From NCBI GenBank assembly GCA_918797485.1, contig CAKKNE010000005.1, forward strand, positions 1,550,001-1,614,000: a DNA stretch of 64,000 nt, read 5' to 3'. Of the stretch, positions 18,998 through 56,073 are shown in pieces; positions within the stretch are counted from its first letter, which is position 1; every line of letters starts with the position of its first letter. Made by a program: the position numbers and the translations under genes. Source of the DNA: Pelagomonas calceolata (lineage: Eukaryota). The notes under the pieces were generated by a model, which was not told the DNA's origin, ran no database searches, and saw only the letters and a list, made by a program, of their open reading frames with translations.

Positions 18998-19805
18998 TGT
19001 GGTTGAGTGTCGCTTGTTTGGATTTTTGGTTGTTGGTAAGTATTCTTCACTTTCTTGTATTTATTTTGATATGAGTACTAGGTACCAAGTACCTCGGTAC
19101 CATGGTACCTAGTACCTACCTACCGCAGCCTGAGTACGGTACCGCAGTGGGCCCACACATGTGCTACAAGCTCGTAGAGCTACCAGCTACCCGACCCACG
19201 GTAGAGGCCAAAACAGCGGCCCTCTGATTTCAAGAGGAGCTTTATGATGGGCCCCCGGGGCGTTCCGAACCTATTTAGTGCTGACTTATGTCCAACAGCT
19301 ACGACTCGGATCAGTATCTTAGCAGCAGTATCTGGCTACCTCAGGCTACGGCACACCTAGTGGCTCGCTGTGAGAATACTGTACTTATACTTGCTCTTGT
19401 CCAACGCTCCGATAGTTCCCTCCCTTGTTTTGGCGCGGGGGCGCGTGGTCCAGGGGGTTCAATTTGAAGTTGAAGTTGTCGTCCGTTGATGATCGGTCAA
19501 CGGCCTCCTTTCCACTCATAAATCTCCCAACTTTGCTTTGGTTTCACTATCCTAGTTCTAGTTATTTCAACTATACCTGAAATACCTCGATAAAGCAGGT
19601 CTAATCAAAAGGTCCTTATCATGATATGATGACATATCCGAGGAGGTACCAGTAGTGCGGCCCGGGCGGCGTTGTCTGCTTTGTTTCTGCTAATATGCCG
19701 CGACAAACGAGGGCCGAATAAGAGCCTCCTCTCTTTACTTGTAACTTAGTAATCATCCTTGCAACCTACTAGCAGTCCATTACAACTTCAAGTTAGTACA
19801 CTAGG

Positions 19806-21290
19806 CTAGAGTTCCTCGTCGCTCGAGGCGTCCGGCGGCGGCGGCGCGAACCGCTCCAGCCGCGCGAGCTCAGCGCGCCACCACGCGTCCGCGCGGCCGT
19901 CCGTCAGGCGCGCCGGGGGCTGCTCGGCGGGCGCCGGCGCGCTGGCGCGGAGCCACAGCTCCCACCGCGGTGCTGCCGCGGGCCCGTCGGCCGGCGTCGG
20001 CGGTGGGTCGCCGTAAAGGGTCGACCGCCGGCGGGCCGCCACGGGTGCGTCGGTGTCGGCCGCGTGGCCCTCGTCGAGCAGCAGCGCCAGCGCGTCCTCC
20101 GTCGCCGCCGGCACGAGCGCCGCCGTCACGGCCGTGGAGTGCGACACGTCGGGCGACACGTTCGCCTCGAGCAGGTAGCAGGACAGGTCCTCGCCGACGA
20201 TGATATCCAAACCGAGCCACTCGAAGCCGTGGCCGACCTTCTCCACGTCCAGGCGCGCGGCCGTCTCCGCCACGGCCACGGCGATGGCGCGGATACCGGC
20301 CCGCACGCGCGCCTCGAAGCTGCCCGCGCCGTAGATTCTATCGATGTGCGCCGCCAGTTGCGCCTGGCTCCACATGTTCTCGGCGATGGCGTCGTCCGCC
20401 GCCGGCGCGTCCTTCTGGATCGAGTAATTGCAGAGGTGCGCGAACTTGTCCCGGAGCGACGCGTCCGAGAGCGCGAACCGTTGTTGAGCAAACCGCGCAT
20501 ACGCCTCGGAGAAGCCCCAGAGCACAAGCTTCGGCCGGACGGCCGACAGGAGGACCCACTGGCGCACGTCGAATTTCCGGGCGAGGGGCGTGAGGGGGCG
20601 CTCGATGTACTTCTGCACGACGACACGCCACCGCCGCGCCATTGCCGCCGCCAGCAGTTCTTGGACCGACGTCGAGCAGACGACGCCCTCGCCGCAACTG
20701 CCGCCCGCCGGCTTGAGCACCCATACGCCCGCGGCGCCGTCGACCACTGCAGCCTGCGGCCGTGCGTCGAAAGCCCGCAGCGCCGCCGCGGCCGCCACCG
20801 CGTCGCCGCCCCCCGTGCGGGCCGCGAGCGTCGCCGCCGTGTCGCCCGCCGCGAGCCGCGCCGCAATTTCATCAAATTTACGCCCGGCGCAGGCATCCAC
20901 GAGCGTCCGCCCCAGGCCGGCGTCGCCGGGGCCCGCGCCGCCTGCGCGCAGCGCCGCCGCTGCCGCGACGCGCGCGGCGTCGCCCAGGAATCGCCGGGCG
21001 TGCGCCGGCAGCCGGAGGTCGTAGCAGCGCGGGTAAAACTCGGCGGACGCGTCCGCCAGCGCGGCCGCGAGCGTTGCCTTGTGGCTCAGCCGCTGCGCGT
21101 GGCGAAGATGGTTCACGTAGCGGTCGGCGTCGGCGGACTCGAAGTCCGTTTGCTTCAGGTTCCGCCACGCGAGGTCCCCGCCACAAATGACGCGCGCCCA
21201 GCCCCGCGCCTCAAGGCACGCGATCACATCGCCAAACTTGTCGTCCGCCACAAAGGTTTGTTGACATAGCCCCACGCGCTGCTCGGCCAT
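19806..21290 (-). CDS. Tubulin-tyrosine-ligase-like protein, TTLL3/8 (glycylase)-like
   Basis: WVLKPAGGSCGEG, VVQKYIERP, KFDVRQWVL, HLCNYSIQK, FEWLGLDII, LLEANVSP. Confidence 0.88.
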   Translation of the reverse strand: MAEQRVGLCQQTFVADDKFGDVIACLEARGWARVICGGDLAWRNLKQTDFESADADRYVNHLRHAQRLSHKATLAAALADASAEFYPRCYDLRLPAHARRFLGDAARVAAAAALRAGGAGPGDAGLGRTLVDACAGRKFDEIAARLAAGDTAATLAARTGGGDAVAAAAALRAFDARPQAAVVDGAAGVWVLKPAGGSCGEGVVCSTSVQELLAAAMARRWRVVVQKYIERPLTPLARKFDVRQWVLLSAVRPKLVLWGFSEAYARFAQQRFALSDASLRDKFAHLCNYSIQKDAPAADDAIAENMWSQAQLAAHIDRIYGAGSFEARVRAGIRAIAVAVAETAARLDVEKVGHGFEWLGLDIIVGEDLSCYLLEANVSPDVSHSTAVTAALVPAATEDALALLLDEGHAADTDAPVAARRRSTLYGDPPPTPADGPAAAPRWELWLRASAPAPAEQPPARLTDGRADAWWRAELARLERFAPPPPDASSDEEL

Positions 21291-21413
21291 ATCTGTTACC
21301 CATGTATTGTTTTGCGCATCGTGTCGGTTGTGCTAGCGTGCTCCCATTTTTGTCCTCTGCTGGCACAGTCTACTTTGGTATCTACTTTGGTATCGTATCG
21401 GCATCTACCTCTC

Positions 21414-22109
21414 TAGAGAGAGAAACCTACTAGCCCTTCCTACCCTAGATATGTATCTCCCACTCTCTAATATTTGAGTCTATACATCGAGTGTCAAAAG
21501 CACTACGGTGTAACAACAGTTCACTATAAAACACTCTCGCAGTCAGGCCTATCAGCTCTAAGCTGGTTAGCTAGGACCCTGCTACTTACATAACGCTGCG
21601 ACATACTCTTGCTAGGTTATGGGCCCACAGGGTTCTGCCTATTGACGTAGAGTGTTTTACAGTGAATGCCTAAACAAGGAAAAACACCCAAAAAGAAATC
21701 TAAAGAGAAAACACCCCAAAAGAGCGGTCGGGACCGTCCAAGCAGACTGCCTACTAGGCTAGTAGATGTTCGAGACAGCGCCTTGTAGCGCGGCGTCCGG
21801 GAGAGATATATGAGCACTGCGTGTCAACTAGCTCTAAGGCCGCCCGTGGGACCCAGCGCTGTCGACGTACAAAGAAGCCTGAGTACGCTAGTGTCTTATA
21901 GACCCGCTAGCAAGAGTATGTCGCAGCGTTATGTAAGGTAGGAGGGTCCTGGCTCACCAGCCGAGGGCTGGGCCAACCTAACTACGAGAGTGTTTTATAG
22001 CAAATTGTTGTTACACCGTAGTGTCTGAGACACTCGCTGTATAGACTCAAATTTAGAGAGTGGGAGATACATATCTAGGGTAGGAAGGGCTAAGGGGTTT
22101 CTCTCTCTA
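21414..22109. mobile_element. Foldback/MITE element with ~200-bp imperfect terminal inverted repeats and TA flanks
   Basis: 21416-21615 (GAGAGAGAAACC...CATACTCTTGCTAG) is an imperfect reverse complement of 21907-22107. TA occurs at both outer ends. A third, left-arm copy lies at 26112-26396. Confidence 0.8.
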
Positions 22110-22283
22110 CTTGCCAGCCGGCCCTACCGCAGTAAGGTTGCATAAGGTACCGCGGCGAAGGCCCAGCCCAAAAGCGCACACAGGAGCAGCCCATAAGATT
22201 CCTACCTCGCGCTCGCAGACGAGAGCGGCGAAACCACCGTTACAGCACACAGCCATTTTCGGTCTCGTTACTTAGAGAGCAGG

Positions 22284-22936
22284 ATGACAGCCCAGGAAGC
22301 GGTAAACGTGTATCGAATGGCGCGCTTTGGCAATAACGACGGCCTAAAGAAGCTTCTCTCGGTAATTTTTTTTTTCTTCGGTGCACCACGTTGATTTCCA
22401 CACAGGATCCTAGTGCGCGCGACCGTGCTGGTCTGTACGACATTAACGCTACCGACGACGCGGGCGCCACGGCGTTAATCTACGCCGCACGCGCCGGCTA
22501 CGTCGGCGTCATCAAGCAGCTTCTGGCGCACGGTGCCTCGGCGACGAAGGAGGGCTACGGCGGCCTCGCGCCCCTCCATCACGCGCTGATCCATCTTCGT
22601 GAGCCAGCGTGCCATGCGCTGCTGGAGGCCGGCGCCGACCCGAACCAGGCGGACAGCGGAGGACACACGTCGCTCCATTTCGCGGCGCAAGTCGGCGCCC
22701 TCAACGTCTTAATCACGCTGCTGGAGCGGGGGGGCGATGCCAAACAACAATCCACGAATAAGACGACGCCGCTGCATGTTGCCGCGCAGACCGGCGCGGA
22801 CGCCATCGTCCTGAGACTGCTGGAGGCCGGCGCCGACCCGAACCAGGCGGACAGCGGAGGGCACACGGCGCTGTCCATCGCAAGAAGAATGGGCTACTCG
22901 TCCATCGTCGCGCTGCTCGAGGAGCATCAGAAGTGA
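22284..22936 (+). CDS. Ankyrin-repeat protein; 2 exons, intron 22362-22405
   Basis: MTAQEAVNVYRMARFGNNDGLKKLLS is spliced (GTAATT..CACACAG) to DPSARDRAG. Ankyrin repeats GATALIYAARAG, GHTSLHFAA, TTPLHVAA. Confidence 0.88.
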
Positions 22937-23199
22937 CCACCTCCGGTGCCGCGCCGGATGGCTTCGAGGGGAAGCTAATGTAATCGTGTCGACGTTCACA
23001 AGGAAAACGACCATGTAGCCGTCGTCACAAAGGCCGGCGCGACTAGAGCCGACGTCGTCGCGCAAAAACCGACGCACATTCCTCTCTTGTCGCCTGTTTG
23101 GGCCAGAGTCAATGCCGCCCCCAGTACTAGTAGTAGTAGAAATAATTACTACGTTTGTTTCCCACGAGGCCGCCATGCAGCCATTTTTAAAACTCAGAC

Positions 23200-23322
23200 T
23201 GGCCTGTGCGATATCAACGCTACCGACGACGCAGGCGCCACGGCGTTTATACTACGCCGCGCGCGCCGGCTACGTCGGCGCCATCAAGAAGCTTCTGGCG
23301 CACGGTGCCTCGGCGACGAAGG
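23200..23322 (+). pseudogene. Frameshifted partial duplicate of the adjacent ankyrin gene
   Basis: Near-identical to ~22428-22549 (..INATDDAGATA..YAARAGYVG..LLAHGASATK) with an extra base and several substitutions. Confidence 0.8.
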
Positions 23323-23332
23323 TGCCCGTTGT

Positions 23333-23382
23333 GGCGAACCGCGTGAAGAGGAGAAGCTGTTTGGAGCATCCTGAATGAGCAC
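23333..23382 (+). ncRNA. Degenerate copy of the permuted hammerhead-like motif
   Basis: GGCGAACC...GAGGA...GCATC-CTGAATGAG-CAC. Same element order as 46734 and 61576, and shares GCTGTTTGGAGCwTCCTGAATGAGCAC with the 27.5-kb copy. GAAA is mutated and no stem III partner was found. Confidence 0.4.
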
Positions 23383-23723
23383 GTAGGCCGCCCACTCGCG
23401 GTTAAAAGACGGGCTCCCCCCAGCTCCTACCTCCCGCACGAGCTCACGAGCTCGCCGTGTGTAAACCCCCCCCCTCTCCGTGCTCCCTCCCGGGCCCCGC
23501 TAGCCTCCCCTCTTGCCCCCCTTGAATCGAGGAGGACACCAAAGACCCGGCAGCGCACCGGAATACAAAAAAAAGCCTGCTCTCAACGGCCGCACGCGCG
23601 ACACGCAAACACGGACGGCGTAGATAGCTCAACAGATTGGGGCGCCCCGCGACGAAGGAGGCGACGGACGTGCAGGCCCTCGCGGACAGCGGCAAAACCC
23701 GGACCGCCGCGATTCGGTGCCTC

Positions 23724-24596
23724 ATGAGCCGCCGCCTGGCAGGGCTGCTGGCGCGCCAGAGGTTCCCCAGATACCGAGCAGCCTTTGGGTATGGCTCCGC
23801 CGTGATCCCTCAGCGGAGCACAGCCGCCCCGGCACTGGTCGACGCCGTCCTGTGCGTCGACGACGCGCGGGCCTGGCACGCGGCGAACGTGTTACGGAAC
23901 CCGGCCCACTACTCGTGGCTGAAAACGCTGGGGCCGGCCGCGATCGCGACGGCGCAGGCTACGTATCCCGGCGTCTACTACAACGTGACGTCAGAATTGA
24001 AATATGGCGTCGTGGCGACGGCGGACCTGCATCGGGACCTCGACGCGTGGACGAGTCTGTACGTCGCGGGGCGTCTCCAGAAGCCTGTGGTGTGGGTGGC
24101 GAGCGACGCCGCCTTAAGCGCCGCCGTCACGCGCAACCTGCGGGCGGCGCTGGGCGCCGCGCTGCTGTCGTTTCGACCCGGACACTTCTTCGACGAGCGC
24201 GAGTTGTTCGCCGCCATCGCGAACCTCTCGTACGGCGGTGACGTGCGGTTCGCTCTGCGCGCCGAGGACCCGCGCAAGGTCCGGAACATCGTCGAGGGCG
24301 GCTTGGGCCGCTTCCGGACGCTCTACGGGCCGCACGTGCAAGTCGCGATCGCCGCCGGCGCGCTAGTGCGGGGCGACTTTGGATTGATGGTGCGCGACGC
24401 GGCGTGGTGCCTCGCGCACGTGCCCGAGACGCTTCGCGGCGCGGCCCGCGCCGGCCGTCTATCGGGCGCGCTGCGGAGCTTGGTCCGCTTCTCTTCTGCG
24501 GCCCAGACGCTCAAGGGCGCGCTGACGGCCGGTCCCGCGCGCGCGGTGGGGTACGCGCGGCGCAAACTCCTGAAGGGATCGGGGTACCCATCATGA
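23724..24596 (+). CDS. TAM41: Mitochondrial phosphatidate cytidylyltransferase Tam41
   Basis: AFGYGSAVIPQ, GVYYN, KYGVV...DLDAWTSLYVAGRLQKPV, LSYGGDVR, EDPRKVRNIV. Confidence 0.92.
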   Translation: MSRRLAGLLARQRFPRYRAAFGYGSAVIPQRSTAAPALVDAVLCVDDARAWHAANVLRNPAHYSWLKTLGPAAIATAQATYPGVYYNVTSELKYGVVATADLHRDLDAWTSLYVAGRLQKPVVWVASDAALSAAVTRNLRAALGAALLSFRPGHFFDERELFAAIANLSYGGDVRFALRAEDPRKVRNIVEGGLGRFRTLYGPHVQVAIAAGALVRGDFGLMVRDAAWCLAHVPETLRGAARAGRLSGALRSLVRFSSAAQTLKGALTAGPARAVGYARRKLLKGSGYPS

Positions 24597-24964
24597 TGTT
24601 AGTAGTACCAGTAGTTTCAGCAAATTAGTAAAACTTATTGCCTAAAGGCTTGGTGTTCGTTCGTCCTTTTTTTTAGGATATTCCTTCCTTGATATTTACT
24701 AGTATCACTGACATGATGATTCATTTCTTGTGTTGTGTATAAATCAATAAATAAATCAATAAATAACTTGAAATTTTTTCAACAGCGATTTCTCTTCCCG
24801 GGCGGCTAGGCCGCAGCCTGAGCCTAGCTCTAAGCAAAGCAAATAAACTTGAATAAATAACTTGAAATAACCGTGACTTGAATTCAAGTTCAATAATAGA
24901 ATCAATATGTTACAGATTTACTAAGAAACCCGAGTGAAGAAATAAATTGAAAATGAAATTATTA

Positions 24965-25110
24965 AGCACCGACCGTGACCTAAAAAGCCTGAGAAGGAAC
25001 AAGCTCCTAAGTATCTTCTTCCCGGCGAATCCCGCTCGGTCAGGAAGCCCGAGCTTCGAAAGCAATAAGGTAAGGTAAGGTGAGAATTCTCGCGATTTGT
25101 GCCCCATGAC
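24965..25110 (+). repeat. Dispersed repeat family (copies at ~24965-25110, ~31898-32050, ~53240-53335)
   Basis: Shared core GAC C(T)TAAAAA..GAACAAGCTCCTAAG..CTTCT....GTCAGGA..CCC...GAGCTTCGAAA in three copies. Confidence 0.75.
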
Positions 25111-25137
25111 AAAAGTCGCTGAAACTATATTCTGTTA

Positions 25138-25971
25138 CTACCCCGGATAGAGCGCCAGGAGCGCGCCGGCGAGCGCGCCGGCGAGCGCGGCGGCACGCGC
25201 GGTCAAAGGCGCCGCTGCGTCGCAGTCTCCGAGCCCTCGGAAGCGCGTCCACTGCTTGTTGTACTCGTGGCGCGGACACATGAAGTCGCCTAGCCGGCAG
25301 GCCCAGACGCCGCACCTGTCCAGGACGCGGCACATGATCCGGCCCGAGTTGCGCTGGCAGACCTCACCCTCGGTGCGGTACGGGCCGAGCCGCTCGTAGC
25401 CCACGATGCCCTGCCCGTCCCAGGTCCACGGCGCGCCGACGCCCCAGTGCGCGATTTCTTCCAATACGCCGCCGTGGCCGTGGCCCGGCGGCGCCGGACT
25501 CAGGTCGCGGCACGTGCACGACGACTTCGCCATCGCCTCGAGGTGTAGGCCGTCGGAGTCCCTGCACTCATCGGAGCACATGGGCCCGAAGATCGCGTAG
25601 TTGTCGACGTCGCCGTGGCGGCCCGCGCGGTCCGTCTTGAGCGCGTAGAGCGCGCGCTCGCACATCTGGGCCGCGCGCTCCATGACCTGGCCGTTGCCCA
25701 GGTAGGCCTTGCAGGCGGTCGCGGGCGGGCAGTCGGGGTACGACAGCGTCGACAAGATGCCCCAGAAGCCATCCTGCATCTTGACCCGGACCTCGCGATA
25801 GGGTCGCACCTCTTGACCCGGACCTCGCGATAAGGTCGCACCATAGAGACTGCTCAGGAAACGGTCGTCGTACCAGTTCCAGAAGGCCGTCATGTTGCAA
25901 CTGGACGATAGCGTATGGGCGTCGATGGTGGCGCGGGCCAGGAGGCACCACGACCATGAGGCGGCCCGCAT
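25138..25971 (-). CDS. Cys-rich secreted, possibly GPI-anchored protein of unknown function
   Basis: Signal-like N-terminus MRAASWSWCLLARA, many cysteines, and a hydrophobic C-terminal tail AAALAGALAGALLAL. Confidence 0.7.
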   Translation of the reverse strand: MRAASWSWCLLARATIDAHTLSSSCNMTAFWNWYDDRFLSSLYGATLSRGPGQEVRPYREVRVKMQDGFWGILSTLSYPDCPPATACKAYLGNGQVMERAAQMCERALYALKTDRAGRHGDVDNYAIFGPMCSDECRDSDGLHLEAMAKSSCTCRDLSPAPPGHGHGGVLEEIAHWGVGAPWTWDGQGIVGYERLGPYRTEGEVCQRNSGRIMCRVLDRCGVWACRLGDFMCPRHEYNKQWTRFRGLGDCDAAAPLTARAAALAGALAGALLALYPG

Positions 25972-26111
25972 AATATTTACGGTCAACCACGCGACAGCCT
26001 GGGCTTGAAAGCGGTCAGCTGCTGCGAATAAAAGAGATAAAAAGAGAGCAACAGCGGCAGGGAATATCTACCGAACCTACGGTACCAAAGGTACCGACGG
26101 ACCGTGCCGAA

Positions 26112-26396
26112 GAGAGAGAAACCTACTAGCCCTTCCTACCCTAGATATGTATCTCCCACTCTCTAAGTTTGAGTCTATACAGCGAGTGTCTTTGACGCTG
26201 CGGTGTAACAACAATTTGCTATAAAACACTCTCGTAGTTAGGTTGGCCCAGCCCTCGGCTGGTGCCAGTGAGCTAGGACTCGGACCGTGACCCTGCTACT
26301 TTAGTACATAACGCTCAGGCTGCGACTCGGACATACTCTTGCTAGGTTATGGGCCCACAAGGTCTCGCCTATTGACGTAGAGTGTTTTACAGTGAA
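26112..26396 (+). mobile_element. Partial copy (left arm) of the 21414-22109 foldback element, carrying several 6-nt insertions
   Basis: Collinear with 21416-21666 apart from substitutions and short insertions at 26263-26331. Confidence 0.8.
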
Positions 26397-26580
26397 CGAC
26401 TAGAAAAGAAAAAGACAAATCAGCCAAAAAGAAATCAACTTACGGTACTTAAATAGTGGCGCGACAATATCTGACTACCAAAATGCACATTTCAATGAAA
26501 CGAACGAAAAGGATGGAGGACAATTTTCACCCCATATTTTCCTAAGGGAAACAAGAGCTTACCCTCATGAAAAGGGGGAG

Positions 26581-26711
26581 TGCGATCATAAATAGGGCGA
26601 AATACCCCCCCCTATCCTATACCCTTCCTATACACTTACATCACCCTTCAACACGCAACGCGTAATAAACACAGTTAAAACCAAAACTACTTAGTGTATT
26701 TAAGGTAGCTC
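26581..26711 (+). repeat. Dispersed repeat (near-identical copy at 46492-46583; related ends inverted at ~55403-55485)
   Basis: GGCGAAATACCCCCCCCTATCCTATACCCTTCCTATACACTTACATCACCC..TTCAACACGCAACGCGTAATAAAC occurs twice. The AGGGCGAAATA and TTAAGGTAGCT ends recur reverse-complemented near 55.4 kb. Confidence 0.75.
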
Positions 26712-26807
26712 CGCGGCAGACTATCTCAGCCGCCGTCACGGTACTCCCAAAGGTGCGTACCCCTTTGGTCTTGCATTATTCGCAAGACGAATTGACGAAC
26801 GTCGGGT

Positions 26808-27479
26808 TTAAACTCCCTCCTGGGCCCCGACGAGCGGCGCGAGCGCCTCCTTCGTGAGGCGCCATACTTCCTCGACGTCGCCCTCGCCCCGGACGCTAAG
26901 CAGCGCGCCGCGCCGCGCATACAGATCCACGATGGGCCGCGTCGCCTCCTCGTAGACTCGTATGCGCCGCCGCGCAGTCTCTGCGTCGTCGTCGTCGCGC
27001 TCGCCGCTCGCGCCGCGCACCGCGATGCGTTGAAGGAGAACATCGTGGGGCACGTCATAAAACAACACGCCGCGCACGTCAAGTCCTTTCGTAGCGGCGT
27101 CCGCCTCCCAGCCTTCCACGTTGTCCGCGTTCCGCGGGAAGCCGTCCACCACAACTACGGGCGCGCCGCGCCTCGTCGCCTCGTCGATCGCTCGCCGCAG
27201 GAGCCGCAGCGTCACGGCGACGGGCACGATCGCGCCGCGGTCGAGGCAGTCCGCGATGACGCGGCTCTCCTCCGAGCCGCCGGCGCGCGCGGCGCGCAGC
27301 AGCTCGCCGGCCGAGACGTGCGCCCAGCCGAACTCGTGCTCCAGTCGTGCGCACTGCGTGCCCTTGCCCGCGCCGGGCCCTCCGAGGCAGAAGAGCACGC
27401 GCGCGTGCGGCGCGCCCGGTCGCAGCGCCGCGGCCGCGGTCGCGATCGCGTGCAAAAGCAGCCGCCTCGTCGTACCCAT
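26808..27479 (-). CDS. UMP-CMP kinase / adenylate kinase family protein with an N-terminal targeting peptide
   Basis: GGPGAGKGTQC P-loop, HVSAGELLR, VDGFPRN, RDDD. Confidence 0.92.
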   Translation of the reverse strand: MGTTRRLLLHAIATAAAALRPGAPHARVLFCLGGPGAGKGTQCARLEHEFGWAHVSAGELLRAARAGGSEESRVIADCLDRGAIVPVAVTLRLLRRAIDEATRRGAPVVVVDGFPRNADNVEGWEADAATKGLDVRGVLFYDVPHDVLLQRIAVRGASGERDDDDAETARRRIRVYEEATRPIVDLYARRGALLSVRGEGDVEEVWRLTKEALAPLVGAQEGV

Positions 27480-27524
27480 GGCGGCGGAGCGGTGCAGACG
27501 GACAAGAGCAGGACCCTGGAGCAC

Positions 27525-27573
27525 GGCGAAACGCCGACGAGGAGGCGCTGTTTGGAGCTTCCTGAATGAGCAC
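27525..27573 (+). ncRNA. Degenerate copy of the permuted hammerhead-like motif
   Basis: GGCGAAACGCCGACGAGGA...GCTTC-CTGAATGAG-CAC. The core has a 1-nt insertion and the upstream stem III/UH strand is not convincingly present. Confidence 0.45.
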
Positions 27574-27794
27574 TAAGGCTGTGGAGTCTAAGACAAAGTT
27601 GTTCTCTTGAGTGGCCCGGAGCCACCCTGATCGCGGGGCTACGACGACACCAAATTTGGCGAGGGCTGTGGCTTCGCTTTAGTTTAGTTTAGTAGTGGCT
27701 GACCCGAGAAGGGCCTCCCTTCCTACGCAAGACTACCAGCGACGAACCTTGGGCCTGCCCGTCGGGGCACTCGGGGGTCTCAACACACAAGCAA

Positions 27795-29753
27795 ATGTCA
27801 AAACTCCTAGCGAAACGAAAAGCCAAGGACGCCACAGCCGTCGACCGCCGCATCCTCATCCTCGACCCGGAGAAGTGCAAGCCCAACTCGGCGGCCTATG
27901 CCTTCCTCAAGCAGTACGCTGGCAAGTGTGGGAAGACGTGCATCGAAGTCGAAGGTAAATTAGTCCGCATCTCGGAGGATTTATGTGCCGCGTGTTTAAC
28001 ACGAGCGAAGCATTGTCCTGGTGGTGCCGTGAGCATCGTGAAACTCCCCACCAATCTGAGCACCGACGTCACGCACCGCTATGGCGAGAACGCGTTCGCG
28101 CTGCACGGCCTGCCGTCGCCACGGCCGGGCGCGGTCCTCGGCTTGCTGGGCACGAACGGCATCGGCAAGAGCACCGCGGTGCACATTTTGTCGGGGCGCG
28201 TGAAGCCGAACCTGGGGGTCCTCACGGCGGCCCCGCCGGCCTGGGCGGACATCATCCAATACTACCGGGGGTCGGACCTGCAGAACTACTTCACCGCCTT
28301 GTGCGAGGATCGGCTGCGCGTGGTGGTGAAGCCCCAGCTCGAGCCGTCGCTCGCGCGCAAGTTCACGGGCCGGACGGTGGGCGCGTGCCTCGAGGAGAGC
28401 GACGAGCTGGGGAAGTGCCGCGAGATCATGGAGCTGCTCGACCTCGAGGCGGTGCGCGACCGCGAGGTGCAGGCCCTCTCGGGCGGCGAGCTGCAGCGCT
28501 TCGCGATCGCGCGGTGCCTCAACGTGGCGGCGGATGTGTACCTGTTCGACGAGCCCTCTAGCTTCCTCGACGTCAAGCAGCGCGTCGCGGCGGCGCAGGC
28601 CATTCGGAGCCTCGTCGACGGCGTCGACGCGGCGGCGCGGGCCGATTCGGTCCGGGCCGCGGACGAAGCGCGGCGGCGGGCAGGCGCGACATACGTCGTG
28701 GTGGTGGAGCACGACCTGACAGTTTTAGATAATGTGAGCGACGCAGTCTGCTGCCTGTACGGCGGCCCGGGGGCGTACGGCGTCGTCACGAAGCGGCAGG
28801 CGGCCGCGGCGGGCATCAACCAGTTCCTGGCGGGCTACATCGCGGCCGAGAACATGCGATTCCGCGCCGAGGCCCTGAGCTTCCAGGTGAGCGTCGAGCG
28901 CGACGACGACGGCGCGCGCGGCGTCGAGGCAGTTCACGCGCCGCAGACGCACCGCTACCCAGCCATGAGCCGGACGCTGACGGGGGAGAACTCGTCCTTC
29001 ACGCTCGACGTCGAGGCGGGCAGCTTCCGGGACGGCGAGGTCGTGGGCCTCATGGGCGAGAACGGCTGCGGCAAGTCGACGTTCATGTCGCTGCTCGCGG
29101 GCGTCGAGAGCGACGCGCCCGCCGGCGCGTCGCTCGCGCGGCTGGGCGTGGCCTACAAGCGCCAGCACGTTGGGCCGCGGTTCCGGAAATACCGGGGCTC
29201 GGTACAGGACTTTCTCGAGGCGCATGTGCAGCACGGGCTGGGTGACCGGCTGTTCCGCCTGCTCGTGATGAAGCCGCTGGGTCTGGAACGCATCGAGGAG
29301 CTACCCGTCCGAAGCCTGTCGGGCGGCGAGGTGCAGCGGCTCGCGATCGTGGTGTGCCTGGGCACGCCGGCGGGCGTGTACCTCGTGGACGAGCCGTCGG
29401 CGGGCCTGGACGTGGAGCAGCGCATCGTCTGCGCGAAGGTGATGAAGCGCTGGGTCGTGTCGCACCTCGGCAAGACCGCTTTTATCATCGAGCACGACTT
29501 CGTGATGGCGACAGCGCTCTACGACCGCGTCGTCGTCTACCGCGGCGCGCCGGGCGTGCGCTGCACGGCGGGCGCGCCGCTGGCGCCGGCCGAGGGTTTC
29601 AACGCGTTCCTCCGCAAGCTCGACGTGACGTTCCGACGCGACGCCGAGAATTTCCGGCCGCGCATCAACAAGCGCGGCTCGGTGCTAGACCGCGAGCAGA
29701 AGCAGGCCGGCGACTATTACAACCTCGACGATGGCGGCGGGGGGGGGGCGTGA
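27795..29753 (+). CDS. ABCE1/RLI1-family ATPase with a divergent Fe-S domain
   Basis: THRYGENAFALHGLPSPRPGAVLGLLGTNGIGKST, YYRGSDLQNYF, LSGGELQRFAI, second GENGCGKST and LSGGEVQR, TFRRDAENFRPRINK. Confidence 0.93.
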   Translation: MSKLLAKRKAKDATAVDRRILILDPEKCKPNSAAYAFLKQYAGKCGKTCIEVEGKLVRISEDLCAACLTRAKHCPGGAVSIVKLPTNLSTDVTHRYGENAFALHGLPSPRPGAVLGLLGTNGIGKSTAVHILSGRVKPNLGVLTAAPPAWADIIQYYRGSDLQNYFTALCEDRLRVVVKPQLEPSLARKFTGRTVGACLEESDELGKCREIMELLDLEAVRDREVQALSGGELQRFAIARCLNVAADVYLFDEPSSFLDVKQRVAAAQAIRSLVDGVDAAARADSVRAADEARRRAGATYVVVVEHDLTVLDNVSDAVCCLYGGPGAYGVVTKRQAAAAGINQFLAGYIAAENMRFRAEALSFQVSVERDDDGARGVEAVHAPQTHRYPAMSRTLTGENSSFTLDVEAGSFRDGEVVGLMGENGCGKSTFMSLLAGVESDAPAGASLARLGVAYKRQHVGPRFRKYRGSVQDFLEAHVQHGLGDRLFRLLVMKPLGLERIEELPVRSLSGGEVQRLAIVVCLGTPAGVYLVDEPSAGLDVEQRIVCAKVMKRWVVSHLGKTAFIIEHDFVMATALYDRVVVYRGAPGVRCTAGAPLAPAEGFNAFLRKLDVTFRRDAENFRPRINKRGSVLDREQKQAGDYYNLDDGGGGGA

Positions 29754-30179
29754 CGTTATGTAATGCGATCAGAGGGTAAGCTGGTGTCTTTAGGGACTCG
29801 GCGGCACGTGCTCGCGGCACATCTCGCGGCTGCGCGTCCGAGAAGTTGCCTTTGCCACCGCAGGAGACCCGGGCCCCGCCAAACATGCCGAGGGGCCGAG
29901 ACTATTGTTGGGCTCTTGCACTGTAAACACGAGACAGGGGCTGTAATAACAAGGTATTACCACGAGCCCACGAGCCAACTACCCTTGGGTACGTGGCAAG
30001 GGTGCGCACGGCTCCCGCCCTGATGCGCATGAGATGCGTCTGGACCAAAGGGGGGGCTCAGTACCAAGCTAAATACGCCGCGCGGCGGACGACGGGGGGC
30101 AGGGGATACAATATATACGTGTCTACTGAGACTCTACTCTGCCAGAGAAGGCTATCTAGATAGCTATACGGTTTGGCCC

Positions 30180-30635
30180 TTACTTCAGGGGGATAAAGCG
30201 CGAGGAGTTCGTCGAGCCGATGCCCGGTCGCCCGTGGCGCACGGGCTTGTACGTGATCGAGAATTCGCCGAGGTAATGGCCGACCATCTCGGGCTTGACC
30301 TCGATGCCGTTGAAGACCTTGCCGTTGTAGACGCCCACGACGCTGCCGATCATCTCGGGCACGACGACCATGTCTCTCAGGTGCGTCTTCACGGGCTCGG
30401 GCTTGTCCATGGGCCCGCAGGCCTTTTTCGCCCGGCGCAATCTGGCTACGAAGCGCTTGGGCTTTGCCTTGAGCCCGCGGTAGATGCGGCGGCGCGCGCG
30501 CGCGTGGATGAGCTGGGCGAACTCCTCGTGGTTCAGGTCGAGAAGCTTCTCGAGCTCGACGCCGCGGAACAGGAACTTGCGGAAGGTGCGCTTCTTGCGG
30601 AGCGCGGCCGCGCGCTCCATCTCGGCCTCGTCCAT
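30180..30635 (-). CDS. RPS15: 40S ribosomal protein S15 (uS19)
   Basis: [62 protein letters not shown]. Confidence 0.97.
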
Positions 30636-31295
30636 GGCAGCGGGGCTCGGTCCGCGCTAGACCTGCGCACACGGGGCGCGCGTCCCCCCCCGTCTTGGAT
30701 TTGATCCGCGTCCCTCGCGAGTGGGCAGCACACGGCGACAAGCTTGCTGACGACACACGGGGTCGCGTTTGCTTGTGTTCACGCGCGCACGCCTCGGCGC
30801 GCTCTCGCTCAAAAAAATAACCGCTTCCGCGAAGACGCCGCATCATACGCAACTATATGGCACAAAAAATAATCGCCTGCTCGCCGAGCTTACTCTAGGA
30901 TAGAGTTTTACAGGCGCATTTTGGCGACGGCACCTATAGAGCCTTACGTCCGTTTGAGACATCATGATTGGTTTTCGGACGGATTTATCTCGGACCATCG
31001 CACCGCAGCTGATTTTTCAGCGTGAGGCTGCCCGCACGGTACCAGAAATGCGCACAGCCCATTATTTTAGCATACGGAACCTGCCAGTGCGCCTCAGCAA
31101 AAATCATTTCCCGCCATTTGGTCGGTGTGGCTGTACGCGCATCATGATTGCGCCAAAACCTGCCAGCGTCGACTATTGCGCTCGACCCCCCTATAAATTT
31201 CGAAGTCTCCAAGGAGTCTTAAGCGTCGCAGGCTAATTCAATGATTCATTCTAATTAGAGCTAAGGAAAGGTAAGGAAGGATCTTACTCCAAAGA

Positions 31296-31313
31296 ATAAT
31301 AAATAACTAAATA

Positions 31314-31352
<39 letters not shown>
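31296..31352 (+). repeat. (AAAT)n microsatellite (second tract at ~31827-31872)
   Basis: Direct reading of AATAAATAAAT runs. Confidence 0.9.
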
Positions 31353-31827
31353 GCTAGGATGTGGGGCACATCAACGTATTTAGCGGCCTAGTCACGGTGT
31401 TCTAAGAGGCACCATGTGCCTGAGAAATTTTCTCAACGCTGGCTTCCAGCACCATAGGGTCTATTATGGCACCAAACACAACCCAGGTTATTCCTGGGCT
31501 GCCCCTTGGGCTGGGACACCTCCGTGAGTGTACCAAATTCTAACGCGAGGCTAGAAGCCAGCTAGCAGTTACCCTGGTTACTGTACTAGCCTTAGGCTCC
31601 CCTCGGATTCTCCGGCCAACCACAAAGCCAAATTGGCTGTGGTTTGCGTCGGCCCTCAGATTTATTTAGCCCGCCCTCCCTCCCTGTTTGATGGGGCCCG
31701 GGGAGATCTCCTACCTGTCCCCGGGGTTGGTTGGCCCGATGGGCGGCAACTGAGCAAAGAGTAAATTCCCAACTATTAGTCTGCTGCTACTCCACTAGCC
31801 ACTAAGGAAACTAGGGTAAGCTGAATA

Positions 31828-31870
<43 letters not shown>

Positions 31871-32543
31871 ATCATGATGATCATTATGATAAATTAAGGA
31901 AGACCTTAAAAAAAGGAACACTGGCAAGCTCCTAAGAGCCTTCTCCCTGCTCGGTCAGGATGCCCAACCGGAGCTTCGAAATAGCAATAAGATAACGGCC
32001 CGGGTACAACGAATTTTCAATCTCCCGGGGTAACTTGTCCCCCATGACCAGCCGACAACGGTACTAATTAACCGGTTTCCGGCCTCGGGGACGGGTAGTA
32101 CTATTTTATTAAGGAAGCACACTCCGAGTCTTTCTCGCCGATTCAGAGTTCTAGGCGTTTCGTGGGGGGGGGGGCTACGAACGCATGCTAGACTGTTACA
32201 CGGGCAGCCGCAGCCGTTCTGCGATATTCCGCTGCGAGGCCCCAAGAGTTTTTTTAGCACAGTCCCTGGGCCAGGCCGATCGTGCCCCGGCGAGTCGGGG
32301 TTGTAGCAGCAATCCTTGGATTTACTAGCTGCACGTAGAGGCTGCACTAAGAATAGATTCAGTCATAAACTTGTAGATTGGTTTCCAACAAGCTGCCGCA
32401 CCTTCAAATTACGATGATAATCATAATGATGCACTAGAAAACTCCACAGTAAGTGTGTGTGTGCGGTATAAGCATGAGTCGATTTCCATGTTACAAAATC
32501 CTTGCTTTGAATTGATTTAAGCTACATATGCATTCGTCTGCAC

Positions 32544-35234: not shown

Positions 35235-35496
35235 GGAATATCGCCTCGCGGCTGATAGGGCCGCGGTGTAGAGAGAGACAGATAGATACCGCGTACAATG
35301 TCATAGTCGTACCGTGACAGACATGCGTAGTAACATACTCTAGAGTCCGAGTCTGGTACGAGCTGGCTGTCACCTGTAGCAAGCGAATGTCGTAGCGCGG
35401 TATAATGTAACAAGGGTCCTAGGCAACCTTGTGAGGGACTGCCCCAGTATCCGGCGTGAGTGTTGGGATAAAGCCTGGCAAACTTGAAGTTGGTCA

Positions 35497-35598
35497 CTAG
35501 GATGGGAAGTAGCCTAGGCGGGTAATACAAGTACGGGTTGTGCTTGGATACGTCTCAGTTGAACCTTGGGATCCTACTAGACGTGTATTTCCATTGCA
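35497..35598. repeat. 102-bp sequence with an apparently identical inverted copy at 46584-46685
   Basis: CTAGGATGGGAAGTAGCC...GTGTATTTCCATTGCA; its reverse complement is at 46584-46685. Confidence 0.85.
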
Positions 35599-35974
35599 AC
35601 TAGCCACGGTAACTACGTACGTACGCCGACCAAATTATTACCTCCGAGTCCGAGTAGTCAGCCTGAGGCTATCGTCCCATACTCAGGCTCAGGCTAGTAC
35701 TATCTATACTAGTATACGATATACTAGTAAGGCCCGGGCTCGCTGGCAACGGCCCGGGAGTTTCCCCCGTGTGTAAGACGCGTAGAGGCCGAGGGTCGCC
35801 GGCACTAGCAGCCGCTGCAATATACACTACGAGGGAGTATCCTAGACTTTTTTCCGGGCCGAAAAATTCTGAAGACTGTTGGCGCTGACGTTTCCGTCAC
35901 TCAGTGACTGGCAGCGAGGCGTCGTCGTGGTTGCTGTGAAGAGCACGGTACCGTTTACCTGAAGGTCCACTATG

Positions 35975-37700: not shown

Positions 37701-38642
37701 TTTGTATCAATTTAGTTACTCTACATTTATACCTACGGTACATATACCTAACTTGAAAACTTGAATAACTTGAAGCATGCACACTGGCAGGCATTGATTC
37801 ATTCAGTTGCCCTGGTCTCCTCTAAGGCCTAGTACAATGCCCACAGACTAGTTATTGGGAACTCGATTTGTCCTTTGCTCAGTTTAAGTTTTTGCCCATC
37901 ATGATGATAGCAAGCAAATTCAAGTTGAACTTGAACTTGAAACCCCGGGCCAATGCGGGAAATCTTACCCTAGCGCGCCGCGGCCCCCCGGGCCCGGGCC
38001 GGGCCGGGCCCGGCCTCGTAGGTTCCCCTCCCCCCTATCCACATACTAGCCTGAGCCTGCCAGTGAGTCACGGTCACGGTATCCGGGCCTACACTGGCAT
38101 TCAATCAACGTAATTATGACACACTCTCGTATTACATAGAGATGCACGAACTCAAATATAATATAATACACACGAACTCAAATTAACAACATGGATGAGC
38201 TACAAGCTCAATTAGATGCAGACGTTGCTGGCCCGGGACTTGAAGCCGGAGACGGGCCACTTTGGACGGGCACTTTGGAGGGCCGGGGGGCGTCACGGTG
38301 TCTTTCTTTGGCCCGGCCTGGGGGCTCCAAAATCACGCCCAGTGCGAGGAACTAAGTGCCAGTGGCGGCAAAAGGAAGGGTTCTAGCGGCGGGTCCGGGT
38401 TCGCGCTCAGGCGGCTGGCTCGCCGCCCTGCCCTGAGTCACGGTGCCAGTGCCAGTCACCGTAGTCTGTTCCTTCAAGTTCTAGTCCAACTTTTATCCCA
38501 ACGGGGGGCGTCTCTCACGAGGCTGCCTAGGACCCTCGCTACATTATACCACGCTACGACTGCTAAGTTGACCTTATATCCCGGATACAGACGCAGTATC
38601 CTTCTCGAGGTAGTAACTATATGAGATGTATTGACGCATGAG

Positions 38643-46295: not shown

Positions 46296-46705
46296 ATCAA
46301 CTACACCACTATTCGCCTCCAAGTATTATTAGAACAACTTTTTAACGCTGACGAGCTTGCGCTTTTGTTTGCAATAATACCAAATTTACGAGGAGCACCC
46401 CCTCCCCCACCAGCCCCACGGAATGGTCCGGGGATGTGTGTTACATTGCTCGCCGAGTCACTCTCAATTGATTCAACATTCCCGCGGTGGCTGCGATAAA
46501 TAGGCGAAATACCCCCCCCTATCCTATACCCTTCCTATACACTTACATCACCCGGGCCCTTCAACACGCAACGCGTAATAAACTGCAATGGAAATACACG
46601 TCTAGTAGGATCCCAAGGTTCAACTGAGACGTATCCAAGCACAACCCGTACTTGTATTACCCGCCTAGGCTACTTCCCATCCTAGGGTACTCCGATATCC
46701 CCTTA

Positions 46706-49547: not shown

Positions 49548-50768
49548 AGCTATACTCTGTCTAGGCGTTACGCAATTAAAGATACTACTGCGTAGACCGT
49601 GCCTGGGCCTACGACAAGGCTACGTGTATGCAGGAACATGGGGAAATTTACCCGCGTACCCCTCTCTTGACATTATATATGTATGATTCCAACCCGAGTC
49701 CCGGGCCTCTGGGGGTGGGGGGCTGATTTCAGTCGGACTCCGAGTCGCCCCGGGCCGGGCCGGGTCCGAGTCACCGTGACCGTGACGGCCCGGGCCCGGG
49801 TCCACTGGCAGATTTATACCCCGGCCGGGCCCGGGCCTGGGCGGGGGTCCGGGAACTTCGTGTGGGAACTCCTCTTGGGGCCTAATAGGGCTCACCAACT
49901 TTTGGTGGGGATTGGTACGATCTCACTGGCAGGCTCAACCGTTGTGACCGCTGCCACTGGCAGTGGCAGGCGCTACTAGCTGTTTCTGGTGCTCCGTCCG
50001 AGTCCGCAGCCCAGACGCGGATGCGGCGGGGGAGCACCCCGAGGACTATGCGGACGCGATAAGCGCTTGGCATTTGAGGGGGGCTGCGCATATAGAACGC
50101 AGGCGCTGAACTCGCCGGCCTTTCTCCTAAGACGGCAAATCGTTATGAGCGGACGATGAGACCAGAAGCGTGATAATGAGGTCGTATGGGACCATAGTAA
50201 GCGCTCTGTGGCCTTATTTTTTCAATTTGGACCGAAGGCCCCGCGAAGGCATCCCGAGCGCCGTGTACGGCGGGGTAAATGGGGGCGCTACGGGGTTGCG
50301 GACCTCCGTAGCGGCCTCAGACCCAACCGAGGTGTTATGTGCAAAGTACGAGGCAGCCTGCCTGGGCCGGGCCGGACTACTGCCGAACGAACTACTCTCG
50401 CACCGCGGCGGTCGCCGAGAGACAGTAATCAATCTGTTTTTCTTGTGATGAGGTCACCTCCCGACGCCTCAAAGAGACCTCAGGTCACATGCCTGAGGGC
50501 CAGTGAGAGAATCCCCGGCCCACGGCACGAGACCTCTACAACCGAAAGACTAATTCAAGTTACTAGTAGTTGACCATTAAGCCATACCGCCGCCGCCGCC
50601 AGAAGTCAACACTGCATACGTGACCTGCAGTACAAGAAGAAAATATCGAACGCGGCGGCATGCGCTTGCACGCGCGAAGTGAAAAACCCGTAATCAACCT
50701 TTGTGAGTGCGCTGCTTTGCAACCGCTAGGTCGACGCCCACCCTCGTCCGGAGTTGACAACCGGTCAG

Positions 50769-52091: not shown

Positions 52092-53442
52092 GTTTGGACT
52101 TCGTGAACTTGAGCCCAGGTATTTACAATCTAGCATGTGCTTCTTCTACATACTCGCAGGCACCCCTTGGGTCTGACATAAACTTCAGATTACTAGAAGT
52201 ATAAAGCTTCACGATTACTCGCACGGTCACGGCGCTAGTAGTAGTAGGCCCGAGCGGTCCGAGCTTGATGGATAACTTGGAATTTGAAATTCTCAAGTGG
52301 CGGTGTCCAGAATAAAGTACGCGCTCGATACCGCACTGGCCTCGACCCCCTCGGGCCCCCTCTAGTAGGGGGGGATACCCAAAACTCAAATTTCTATGAC
52401 TCCTCCCGGGACCCCCAGCGTCGTCACCATGCTTTAGAGGGACCTTAGTAAGCTGGGTTTGACCCAGGGTTGATAACAAACGGATCGGATGGCGCAAAGT
52501 TATGGGCGGTAGACGCCTACATTTTTTATACGCGTTTTCGTCAGGAGGCCGAGCGCGGTCAGTGATGATACCAGGCGCTTTCGATACGGTCGTAGTGACT
52601 GGGAAAGTATGCCTGGTCTCGTGACGCCGCGATTGTGACCGTGAGTGAGTCGATGACAATCTCGGCCGAGAACGTGTTCGGGCCTAAGGCGCGTTCCACA
52701 AGGACAGGGGCGTCTCACGTCGTGCGTGTCGACCGGGGAGCCACGCGCGAATGCGCTGAGGTAAGAGAAACGCAGTCCCGTCGCGTCATTTGCCGATACA
52801 GCTGCCCCATGCTGCAAATGGGGCTGCTGCGGGCCGCGGCTGGCGCAACTGACGCGTTCGCAGCGTCCGCAGCATCGCAGACCGACGCCAGGCCACGCGC
52901 AGACGCCTAATGTGCGCTCTCCCGCCCCGCCTTTAGCTGGCAAAGCCCTGAGTGCGTCTCCTCAAGGGAGTGTCGCCAAATTTACCAAACTGTCAGATTA
53001 GTTTGGACCAGCGGGATTTTGTAGGAAGGACTCCTAGTGGGACCCACCTTGACGCTCCATGGCAATATTCCTGCGGTCCAAACTCATTGCCTCCCGCCAG
53101 GACTCCCAAAGTTCGCTAGAGCTAGCGTAAAATACCCGCACGTTACGACCACTGCCCCCCCTACCTCTACCTAACGTCACGGTGCCAGTGTGCCTCAGCC
53201 TGCCAGTCACGGTGAGGTTACTAGTACTAGTAATAAAAAAAGGAAGACCTAAAAATGAACAAGCTCCTAAGAGCCTTCTCCCTGATCAGTCAGGATACCC
53301 AACCGGCCCGGGAGCTTCCGAGTCGAAATAAGGTGAAGATAAATAACTTGAAATAACACTGGCAGGAAAGGAAGACTCCGAGTCCGAGTCATGACGAGCA
53401 ACACTGGCAGTGGCACCGACAACCTGCTGAAGCTATGCCCTA

Positions 53443-54747: not shown

Positions 54748-56073
54748 TTAGCATTTCGACAAGCAGAACGGCGCGGGAGCTCCACTGGAAAACGAGATAG
54801 CATCACTGCACATGACAAGGTGAGGAGGACGAGGTTTTAGTATACATTATTAGATCGACTGGATTAGATACGTCTTACTAACTTCTTACTGCGTTACCTT
54901 TACTCGAGTCATGCTGCCGCAGGTATGCTACAATGCTTACAGACTGACAACTCGAGCGGTCGGGTGCCAGTACTTGGCCCCACTCGACCTATTTGAGCAC
55001 CTAGATAGACGACCCGAAGCGTCCGGAAGACCCCAGAACTTGACTTGAAGTAGGCCCGGGAGTCACGGTCACCGTGACCGTGACGGCGTGCCAGTGACCG
55101 TGACGGTCACGTCACAGCGGCCCTGTCTCGGAGTTCAAGTTCCCGACTCGGAGTCACTGGCAGCCTCAGGCTGAGTCACTGGCACGGGACAAGGCCCACT
55201 GGCACCCGGGCCGGGGGGTGCGAATGATCGCAAGACCAAAGGGCCCGGGCCCGGGGTACGTACCTCAGGCTTTGGGACTCGGAGTACAGCGGCTGAGACC
55301 GTGACCCGGATGGTCCGCGGGTGGCCGGATGTTATACGGCACTTTCATTTCTAAAGCCTGAGGGAGCCTGAGACCCGGCCCGGGCCGCCGGCCCGGGCAC
55401 TTAGCTACCTTAAATTACACTATCTGCTTGAGTAAAGGTGTATACGTAGAATCTTCCGAGGTCAGGGGGGGGCTATTTCGCCCTAAATCCCAGGAGGCCC
55501 GGCTCTTACTGATAGCCGGACAGTACGCTTGCTAAATTCGGCTATAAACAAAACGCCGATTTAGGGCCTCGCGCAGAGCAGCAGCTTTTCCAAGGGCACT
55601 CGCAGACCGCCGAGCCGGCTAACTCTCATGCCAGTGCGCGCTCTTTTTTTGCGCCTGGCGCGGACGAGTTCCTAGGACCTCCACACGCGCTGGCGGCACA
55701 AATTCGGACTAGTAGTACATACGGTCAATCATGGCATCGCTGAGGGAGGCGTCGCTTTGGGCCACTATGATCATGTCAAAAGCGCGTTAGAAGGCGCGTG
55801 GGATCATTACAGGCCACCGGTGGGTACCGCCGAAATCGCACGGGAAAATATTAGGCCCGGGCGTGTCTACCCATGACGTTGGGGGGGCGGGAACTACGGG
55901 AGCATTTTAAACTCACAATACGGAGCTCCCTTGCTGAACTTTTCGAGCCCTGCCACTGCGGTGCCATTGCTGTTCATCTCACACCCGACGGGTCTTGATG
56001 AATATATATATATAGCGCAAAATCTCCCATGAAATGTCGGACTAAGGCTATCCGTTGAGAGCAACGGCAGCCC

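Follow-up and report, generated by a model that had tools for sequence, protein, structure and literature searches.

The DNA considered here, hereafter the window, is a stretch of 64,000 nucleotides of Pelagomonas calceolata (contig CAKKNE010000005.1, positions 1,550,001 to 1,614,000). It carries ordinary host genes, with a GC content of 63-78% over the first 16 kb and of 45-55% after 30 kb; at 30000-32000 the value drops sharply, from ~68% to 45-54%, with short-intron genes beyond the step, which is like the border of a centromeric GC trough as reported from P. calceolata (PMC9481584). Window DNA recurs in three culture runs and in many marine metagenomes. A segment of an ankyrin-repeat gene is partially duplicated in tandem (22428-22550 and 23199-23322, 92% identical), and at 23619-23743, near the start of a Tam41-like ORF, contigs from runs X4 and X13 exceed the window by 6 bases in length. 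An ORF of 558 amino acids with a lysine-rich start (17321-18997) adjoins a TA array and is possibly the cargo of a mobile element; it has no Pfam match, and its atlas matches lie below 0.8 and are uninformative. Two pairs of inverted repeat ends, 8886-8955 / 12525-12595 and 35389-35448 / 38501-38560, stand 3-4 kb apart, each around a host gene, and are possibly MITE pairs or gene-carrying elements.

Several copies of one repeat are also present, and that at 26.1 kb carries a series of short insertions (Table 1). The first-pass annotation had described it as a foldback copy, which proved wrong. Among 29 distinct two-ended copies, a purine tract precedes 8 and one constant motif follows 9, and a 5-bp target-site duplication (TSD) flanks 3 solo copies; on these grounds the repeat is a long terminal repeat (LTR). 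In a metagenome locus (L028), an ORF with motifs that we take to be RNase-H-like, and thus presumably copia-type, lies upstream of the LTR purine tract; neither this ORF nor its six homologues gave a Pfam match. The host repeat is probably, to judge from these sequence features, the LTR of a copia-type retrotransposon. The family has a high read depth, and its pattern had no match in viral and prokaryote collections. The LTR copies 21414-21614, 21908-22109 and 26111-26344 are bounded by TA at both ends and not by TG...CA. A pattern made from this repeat was used to draw 122 loci (482,541 bases) from metagenome contigs; window and loci together come to ~0.55 Mb, a sample built around a single LTR family, in which the loci are short contigs that break at repeats. 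Many glycosyltransferase and methyltransferase genes are found in loci around the LTR (L001, L013, L014, L047, L057, L066, L070, L073).

The insertions in the 26.1-kb copy turn a dinucleotide XY into XY-C-revcomp(XY)-G-XY, the inverted copy being written rc(XY) or Y'X' below. After removal of the five 6-mers the copy is collinear with that at 21.9 kb, except for a change of TA to TA-G-TA at 26302-26306, an insertion missing from the first-pass list. None of the five sites at 26263-26331 was seen in an independent contig. The 8-mer that results from such an insertion, called a scar here, is present at 11 of the 11 coordinates that had been named in the window, and the claimed 6-nt insertion rule is thereby borne out.

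Table 1. Scars, scar clusters and repeat copies in the window
Feature	Position	Strand	Remark
Unscarred LTR copy, reference	21414..21614	+	alignment of copies
Unscarred LTR copy, opposite orientation	21908..22109	-	alignment of copies
Scar TA-C-TA-G-TA	24697..24704	.	in window; absent from allele L050
Scar cluster	24697..24993	.	8 first-round and 1 nested in 24700-25100; differs from L050 in both directions
Scar AC-C-GT-G-AC	24972		named site, 8-mer present; also in L050
Scar AG-C-CT-G-AG	24986		named site, 8-mer present; also in L050
LTR hosting five scars	26111..26344	+	high-copy, probably Ty1/copia-type retrotransposon
Scar TG-C-CA-G-TG	26263..26270	.	absent from 21.4- and 21.9-kb copies
Scar GA-C-TC-G-GA	26277..26284	.	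shares one base with next scar (26284..26291)
Scar AC-C-GT-G-AC	26284..26291	.	26.1-kb copy compared with other LTR copies
3-base product TA-G-TA	26302..26306	.	expected alternative at self-complementary XY; no tandem duplication of flanks
Scar CT-C-AG-G-CT	26314..26321	.	26.1-kb copy compared with other LTR copies
Scar GA-C-TC-G-GA	26324..26331	.	26.1-kb copy compared with other LTR copies
PBS-like motif	26345-26357		directly after LTR 26111..26344
Scar GT-C-AC-G-GT	26735..26742	.	many other repeat copies without scar, in all four runs
Scar TG-C-CA-G-TG	31082..31089	.	most other copies without scar
Scar CA-C-TG-G-CA	31919..31926	.	most other copies without scar
Single-copy intergenic scar cluster	37750..38480	.	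four-deep nesting: 19, 4, 2, 2 per collapse round
Scar CC-C-GG-G-CC	46551..46558	.	absent from 26.6-kb copy
Intergenic scar cluster	49700..50004	.	11, 5, 1 per collapse round
Scar cluster including 53305 and 53317 sites	53176..53409	.	9, 4, 1 per collapse round
Scar cluster hiding copy of 26.6-kb repeat	55053..55397	.	20, 3 per collapse round

Between 31 and 64 kb there are 146 rule 8-mers, where 100 order-2 Markov simulations give 9.0 ± 3.2 (maximum 21) and an order-4 model gives 23.4 (maximum 34). The enrichment over the order-2 expectation is 16-fold, and six of the 12 commonest strand-merged 8-mers of this part are rule words. From 16.5 to 31 kb, 43 rule 8-mers were counted against 8.7 expected. 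The very GC-rich part from 1 to 16.5 kb gave no specific signal, the rule 8-mer (70 vs 26.5 expected) being accompanied there by 69 words with G..C and 87 with C..C spacers. The comparison with spacer controls, which the first-pass annotation had proposed, shows no excess of the rule 8-mer in 1-16.5 kb. The A/T spacer controls are at background (7 vs 7), and the G..C control is also elevated (45 vs 9); its word is one that tandem scars and CCCGGG tracts produce. Forms of the rule with a word of one base (124 vs 142) or three bases (3 vs 0.6) in place of XY showed no clear enrichment. The terminal inverted repeat (TIR) of a small element at 42249-42514 contains the CC/GG rule word, and therefore some of the CC/GG counts are not scars.

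The same pattern was found in the 122 loci, where the C..G spacer pair occurs 879 times and each of the other fifteen pairs 57-197 times (only XY containing A or T counted; overlaps between loci kept). After duplicates had been merged, the 2-base class stood at 672 vs 52 for the A..T control and was the sole class to stand out, with 23 vs 10 for 3-base words. Over window and loci, long ORFs contain 46 scars in 202,493 bases (0.23 per kb; controls 0.16), and the sequence outside them contains 966 in 344,048 bases (2.81 per kb).

On comparing copies and alleles, it was found that the 6-mers are gained rather than ancestral and later deleted, as other copies are without them, alleles differ and scars nest. 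Among 40 distinct full LTR copies, those of the window included, 9 of 10 six-base insertions fit the rule, and these lie at nine different positions; 27 of the 40 copies have no scar and the others have up to seven. A set of 43 long alignments, allelic or homologous, has 6 bases as its most frequent indel length once single bases are set aside; of the 13 six-base indels there, 12 fit the rule. When 6-nt indels between alleles and copies were classified in a wider set, 40 of 52 did so; several of the other 12 are, by eye, one mismatch off the rule or junction artefacts of TA arrays. Comparison of four runs with 19000-38900 showed 6 bases missing at 26735, 31082 and 31919 (3 of 12 indel rows listed, of 396 in all), omissions that in run X1 are carried by over half the depth. 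The allele L050 is without the window scars at 24697 and 24859, and a rule scar at ~21893 is carried by the alleles L050 and L101 and missing in the window. Segregating scars amount to ~1 per 20 substitutions (12 scars and 273 isolated SNPs, with slightly different filters).

Collapse of the scars in 31-64 kb, round by round, removed 125, 22, 5 and 2 of them, against 7 and then none for A/T spacers, and therefore the events nest four deep. Assembly artefacts are excluded as an explanation: the independent metagenome locus L050 has the 24972 and 24986 sites, gap-free, and a wild-sample contig (run X8) covers 36319-38034 with 0 gaps. The cluster at 55.0-55.5 kb had 0 BLAST matches to the 26.6-kb repeat as it stands and 5 after scar collapse, the best with an E value of 9e-17. 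Scars lie close together, with 280 of 758 spacings within 30 bases and a spacing peak at exactly 6 bases (38 vs ~13 at neighbouring spacings), and they occur beside low-GC3 genes (3.7 per kb) as well as high-GC3 genes (2.0-3.2 per kb). The scars are derived 6-base insertions, recent and nested, that recur in small non-coding patches, and the rule 8-mers represent a real mutational signature, genome-wide and still active, whose end structure has good support.

The sequence of the scar bears on its origin. All 16 dinucleotides serve as XY, GC and CG least, and the base composition around the pre-insertion site is flat at 457 isolated sites. A C before and a G after the scar are found at 96 of 845 sites, which is about chance. 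Both results agree with the earlier statement that the rule is independent of the flanks, and its strand symmetry is supported as well; the constant C and G need an outside source because they are not flank-derived; the ends of an element are the simplest one. Sibling words (XY-CG-XY, XY-C-XY, XY-rc-XY and one-sided forms) showed no clear excess for non-TA XY, with ratios of 0.88-1.24 like those of the A/T controls, and the spacer-less XY-rc-XY occurs at 1.14 times expectation.

A tail whose final two bases also occur within it in inverted form, whatever the sequence, is the product of an opened hairpin, and the nuclease Artemis prefers to open hairpins two bases past the tip. Two 3' tails of the form XY-C-Y'X' pair over their full length only at self-complementary XY, and XY-C-XY or XY-G-XY is hence expected only there. 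The seven non-slippage XY-N-XY insertions all have a self-complementary XY (TA in four, AT in two, GC in one) and C or G as N. The chance of this combination is ~1 in 8 per event, which puts seven of seven far below chance; without the four TA cases, which possibly come from a TA-specific element, it is ~1 in 1000. This predicted 3-base product supports the suggestion that two opened hairpins, each keeping its central C, may have annealed via XY, and microhomology of the opened tails would explain the joint. At three of the self-complementary XY (GC, CG and TA) the 8-mer itself is depleted; AT shows no such loss.

It is on balance probable that the scars are healed double-strand breaks from the excision of a CMCT-like cut-and-paste transposon with a 2-bp TSD and C...G ends, the terminal base of which is kept in flank hairpins. 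Insertion of such an element would yield XY[C...G]XY. The non-transferred strand would then be nicked one base inside each element end; with its 3' OH, this C would attack the opposite strand at the element border to give a flank hairpin, XY-C-Y'X'. Opening of each hairpin by a host nuclease two bases past the C would leave 5-base 3' tails, which would anneal via their last two bases and be filled and ligated to XY-C-Y'X'-G-XY. At self-complementary XY the whole tails would pair around a C:C mismatch and give XY-C-XY or XY-G-XY. Clusters and nesting would arise if one open patch were hit repeatedly, and landing in open patches would also account for the presence of scars beside low- and high-GC3 genes; re-excision right after gap filling is conceivable, since the filled gap would end exactly at the proposed nick.

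The inference of transposon excision made in the first-pass annotation is supported in part, as regards the rule, the derived state and the annealing of hairpins; no element that would make the break was found. Flank hairpins, which had been called established for CACTA, hAT and RAG-type transposases, are described for hAT, Transib, RAG and MULE, where palindromic insertions and joins by microhomology accompany them (PMC5873905, PMC5499845), and no paper was found for CACTA. Some points count against the proposed excision. Scars segregate, yet the window and the 122 loci yielded neither a filled site nor a matching TIR family nor a transposase; a dozen segregating scars without a segregating filled site imply that the filled state is short-lived or nonexistent. 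In the literature found, no transposase is described as nicking one base inside the element and forming a flank hairpin. The dominance of a single repair outcome among the scars differs from excision in plants, where 8 of 94 were perfect (PMC4423477), although the footprints of Ac/Ds in Candida are reported as strongly biased (PMC5873905). The four three-base events at TA could stem from a TA-specific element, and the expected loss of the 8-mer at self-complementary XY is uneven.

The element was sought in the window and the 122 loci. No filled allele or copy XY[C...G]XY was found at a scar site in these 0.55 Mb, the short contigs of which break at repeats, and no TIR family with C...G ends and variable 2-bp TSD was seen in the window or the loci. 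In a scan for TIRs with 2-bp TSDs, 15 of 214 pairs starting with C had matching TSDs, which is background level (10-14 of ~200 for other bases), 42 candidates from a scan for large insertions between homologous segments included 0 clean XY[C...G]XY, and scans of repeat boundaries gave no family with variable 2-bp flanks. No transposase was detected among 261 ORFs scanned with Pfam (33 + 84 + 144, a small part of the genome). The TIR family and transposase that the first-pass annotation had suggested looking for thus did not appear in ~0.55 Mb, which is weak evidence of absence because the sample was chosen around one LTR family and its short contigs break at repeats. In the P. calceolata gene table, the only DNA transposase among the matches listed is Tc1-like, the species match to the window DNA being uncertain. 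Searches with three triple-scar patterns and RBBP4 gave no match in viral contigs.

Three candidate agents were rejected. An introner family with CTG...CAG ends, and thus a C...G TIR, has an 8-bp and not a 2-bp TSD; in six copies the flanks match at 8, 8, 7, 7, 6 and 5 of 8 bases. The introns are ~200 bases long and TIR-bearing, and copies lie at 13667-13870 and 22364-22405 of the window, in L032 (2448-2648), in L009 (1421-1551, 1841-1939) and in L073 (5600). The first two bases of their TSD on the gene strand supply the GT/GC donor, and the introners of Aureococcus likewise have an 8-bp TSD (PMC9860276). The element at 42249-42514 (42251-42512 in one scan), a small TIR element with C...G/CCCGGG ends, has a TA duplication only, and a candidate at 9465-10080 of L047 is internal to another MITE.

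Arrays of TA units, often around LTR insertions, are found at 19075-19145 of the window, in L049 (786-1030, 9853-10458) and in L054 (3970-4459), with spacers that are mostly CC/GG (301) and CCG/CGG (283). They resemble footprints of the Tc1/mariner type, stacked on one another, from an element that targets TA and ends in CCG...CGG. These TA-CC/CCG-TA arrays imply that repeated cycles at one spot do occur in this genome.

Among known systems, Ac/Ds and other hAT elements share with the scars a palindromic insertion at the joint, a flank hairpin, a microhomology join and a biased outcome (PMC5873905, PMC2921059); in hAT, however, the TSD is of 8 bp and the centre of the palindrome is the complement of the flanking base, whereas here a constant C or G foreign to the flank accompanies a 2-bp duplication. 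Words of the hAT type for TSDs of 6-11 were found at most once each. The CMCT clade comprises EnSpm/CACTA, Mirage, Chapaev, Transib, Plavaka and ESTA, together with Lanisha, and its elements have mostly CA..TG ends and TSDs of 2-5 bp, with 2 or 3 bp in PlavakaB (PMC12730594). The likeness lies in the C start and G end of most lineages, the short TSD and the kinship to the hairpin-forming RAG1 and Transib; the scar, in contrast, reveals only the first and last base, and neither element nor transposase was found in the window and the 122 loci. For any XY, the scar would require that 2 bp be duplicated, and its constant C and G would be compatible with CMCT ends; in ~0.55 Mb no element was seen, nor did the 261 ORFs scanned with Pfam include a DDE transposase such as this clade has, with C(2)C and H(3-4)H motifs. 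No paper was found that reports this footprint for a CMCT element, older work on En/Spm footprints lying outside the search. The scar behaves like a hairpin-type excision footprint, for which CMCT-like is a candidate label.

RAG and Transib elements would form blunt hairpins without an extra central base, giving a word and its inverse without C and G; the scars do not have this form, as the constant C and G are present. The two systems share with the proposed excision the flank hairpins that a host nuclease opens (PMC5499845), and an active RAG-like transposon with a 5-bp TSD, AanRAGL, is reported from the pelagophyte Aureococcus anophagefferens (PMC9435367). Tc1/mariner elements have a 2-bp TSD, and their footprints retain terminal element bases; they are TA-specific, with neither hairpin nor inverted target copy, whereas here all 16 dinucleotides are used and every 6-base scar contains an inverted XY. 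No description of the rule XY-C-rc(XY)-G-XY was found in full-text literature, most subscription papers being outside the search, in line with the earlier remark that none was known; in the main text of one paper on P. calceolata (PMC9481584) the string 'palindrom' does not appear.

The main rival to excision of a transposon is a host or resident enzyme acting without one, which we regard as unlikely. A break in open chromatin with a 2-base stagger, as made by Spo11 and topoisomerase VI, would be filled, given an untemplated C, sealed into a hairpin, opened and joined, with the same tails and scars as a result; Rev1 has a dCMP-adding activity. Three unusual steps would be needed in a fixed order, for which we know of no precedent. 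Such an enzyme would account for the failure to find a filled site or transposase as well as for the near-absent target preference, the clustering and the high rate, and SPO11 has been reported in P. calceolata (PMC9481584). Simple 2-base duplications are nevertheless no major class: 2-base indels of the tandem type number 8, and rule events 40. Meiotic Spo11 is also mildly disfavoured by scars being at least as dense beside low-GC3 as beside high-GC3 genes, the low-GC troughs being thought recombination-poor in P. calceolata (PMC9481584).

A transposon with a 2-bp TSD and C...G ends might also act without hairpins, and this is rather improbable. The C and G would again come from the element ends, a double nick of the Tc1/mariner kind would leave a C tail of one base, and fold-back synthesis on each end would make the inverted XY during repair; the nicks of Tc1/mariner are offset inward, inside the element. 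Double cuts are depicted for this superfamily (PMC5499845, Figure 1 legend). Direct joining of 1-base tails predicts XY-C-XY or XY-G-XY at any XY, yet 0 of 7 such events are at a non-self-complementary XY and these words have no k-mer excess; fold-back priming without base pairs should moreover depend on sequence, while the target is flat. Template switching in replication, by short inverted copying, can yield strand-symmetric palindromic insertions without an element. It offers no source for a constant C and G that the flanks lack, so that the flank test largely refutes it, and the XY-rc(XY)-XY words that it should leave are near expectation, with only the 2-base word class standing out; it is very improbable. 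Chemistry of the hAT type on a 4-bp TSD C-XY-G, with the complement of the flanking base at the hairpin centre, would produce the same word, and documented hAT footprint arithmetic does give +6 for a 4-bp TSD (PMC5873905). It demands a C before and a G after every scar, in conflict with the 96 of 845 seen and with other flanks at, for example, 26263, and is refuted with next to no probability left. Just as little is given to slippage, to chance, to the deletion of ancestral words or to errors of assembly, which are refuted as general causes. The excess of 6-base spacings may include slippage of an existing scar unit, but this group is contradicted by the 16-fold enrichment, by the same scars in independent assemblies, by the nesting and by the scars of different copies, which sit at differing points of a common ancestral sequence.

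A wider claim, which is possible but doubtful, is that a 2-base stagger with a constant C sealed in a hairpin at each end represents an undescribed break chemistry and a dominant mutator of open chromatin in a globally abundant picoalga, through a transpososome that re-excises on the spot, the element hence being almost never fixed, or through a host enzyme alone. Scars would then have written ~2% of the non-coding DNA and would be the commonest indel class above one base.

If excision of a transposon is the true explanation, the scar records the cleavage positions of a transposase class with a 2-bp TSD and C...G ends, probably CMCT, and with them an excision chemistry that was not found described, in which a mariner-type nick one base inside the element is combined with a flank hairpin of the hAT/RAG type. 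In a small eukaryote genome, short indels could then come mainly from excision repair. If no element exists, the scar represents a new mutational process. Scars erase homology in promoters and LTRs. The scar identifies itself, has a readable nesting order and segregates in the wild; it may hence provide a map of past open chromatin, and the same properties would make scars strain markers poor in homoplasy.
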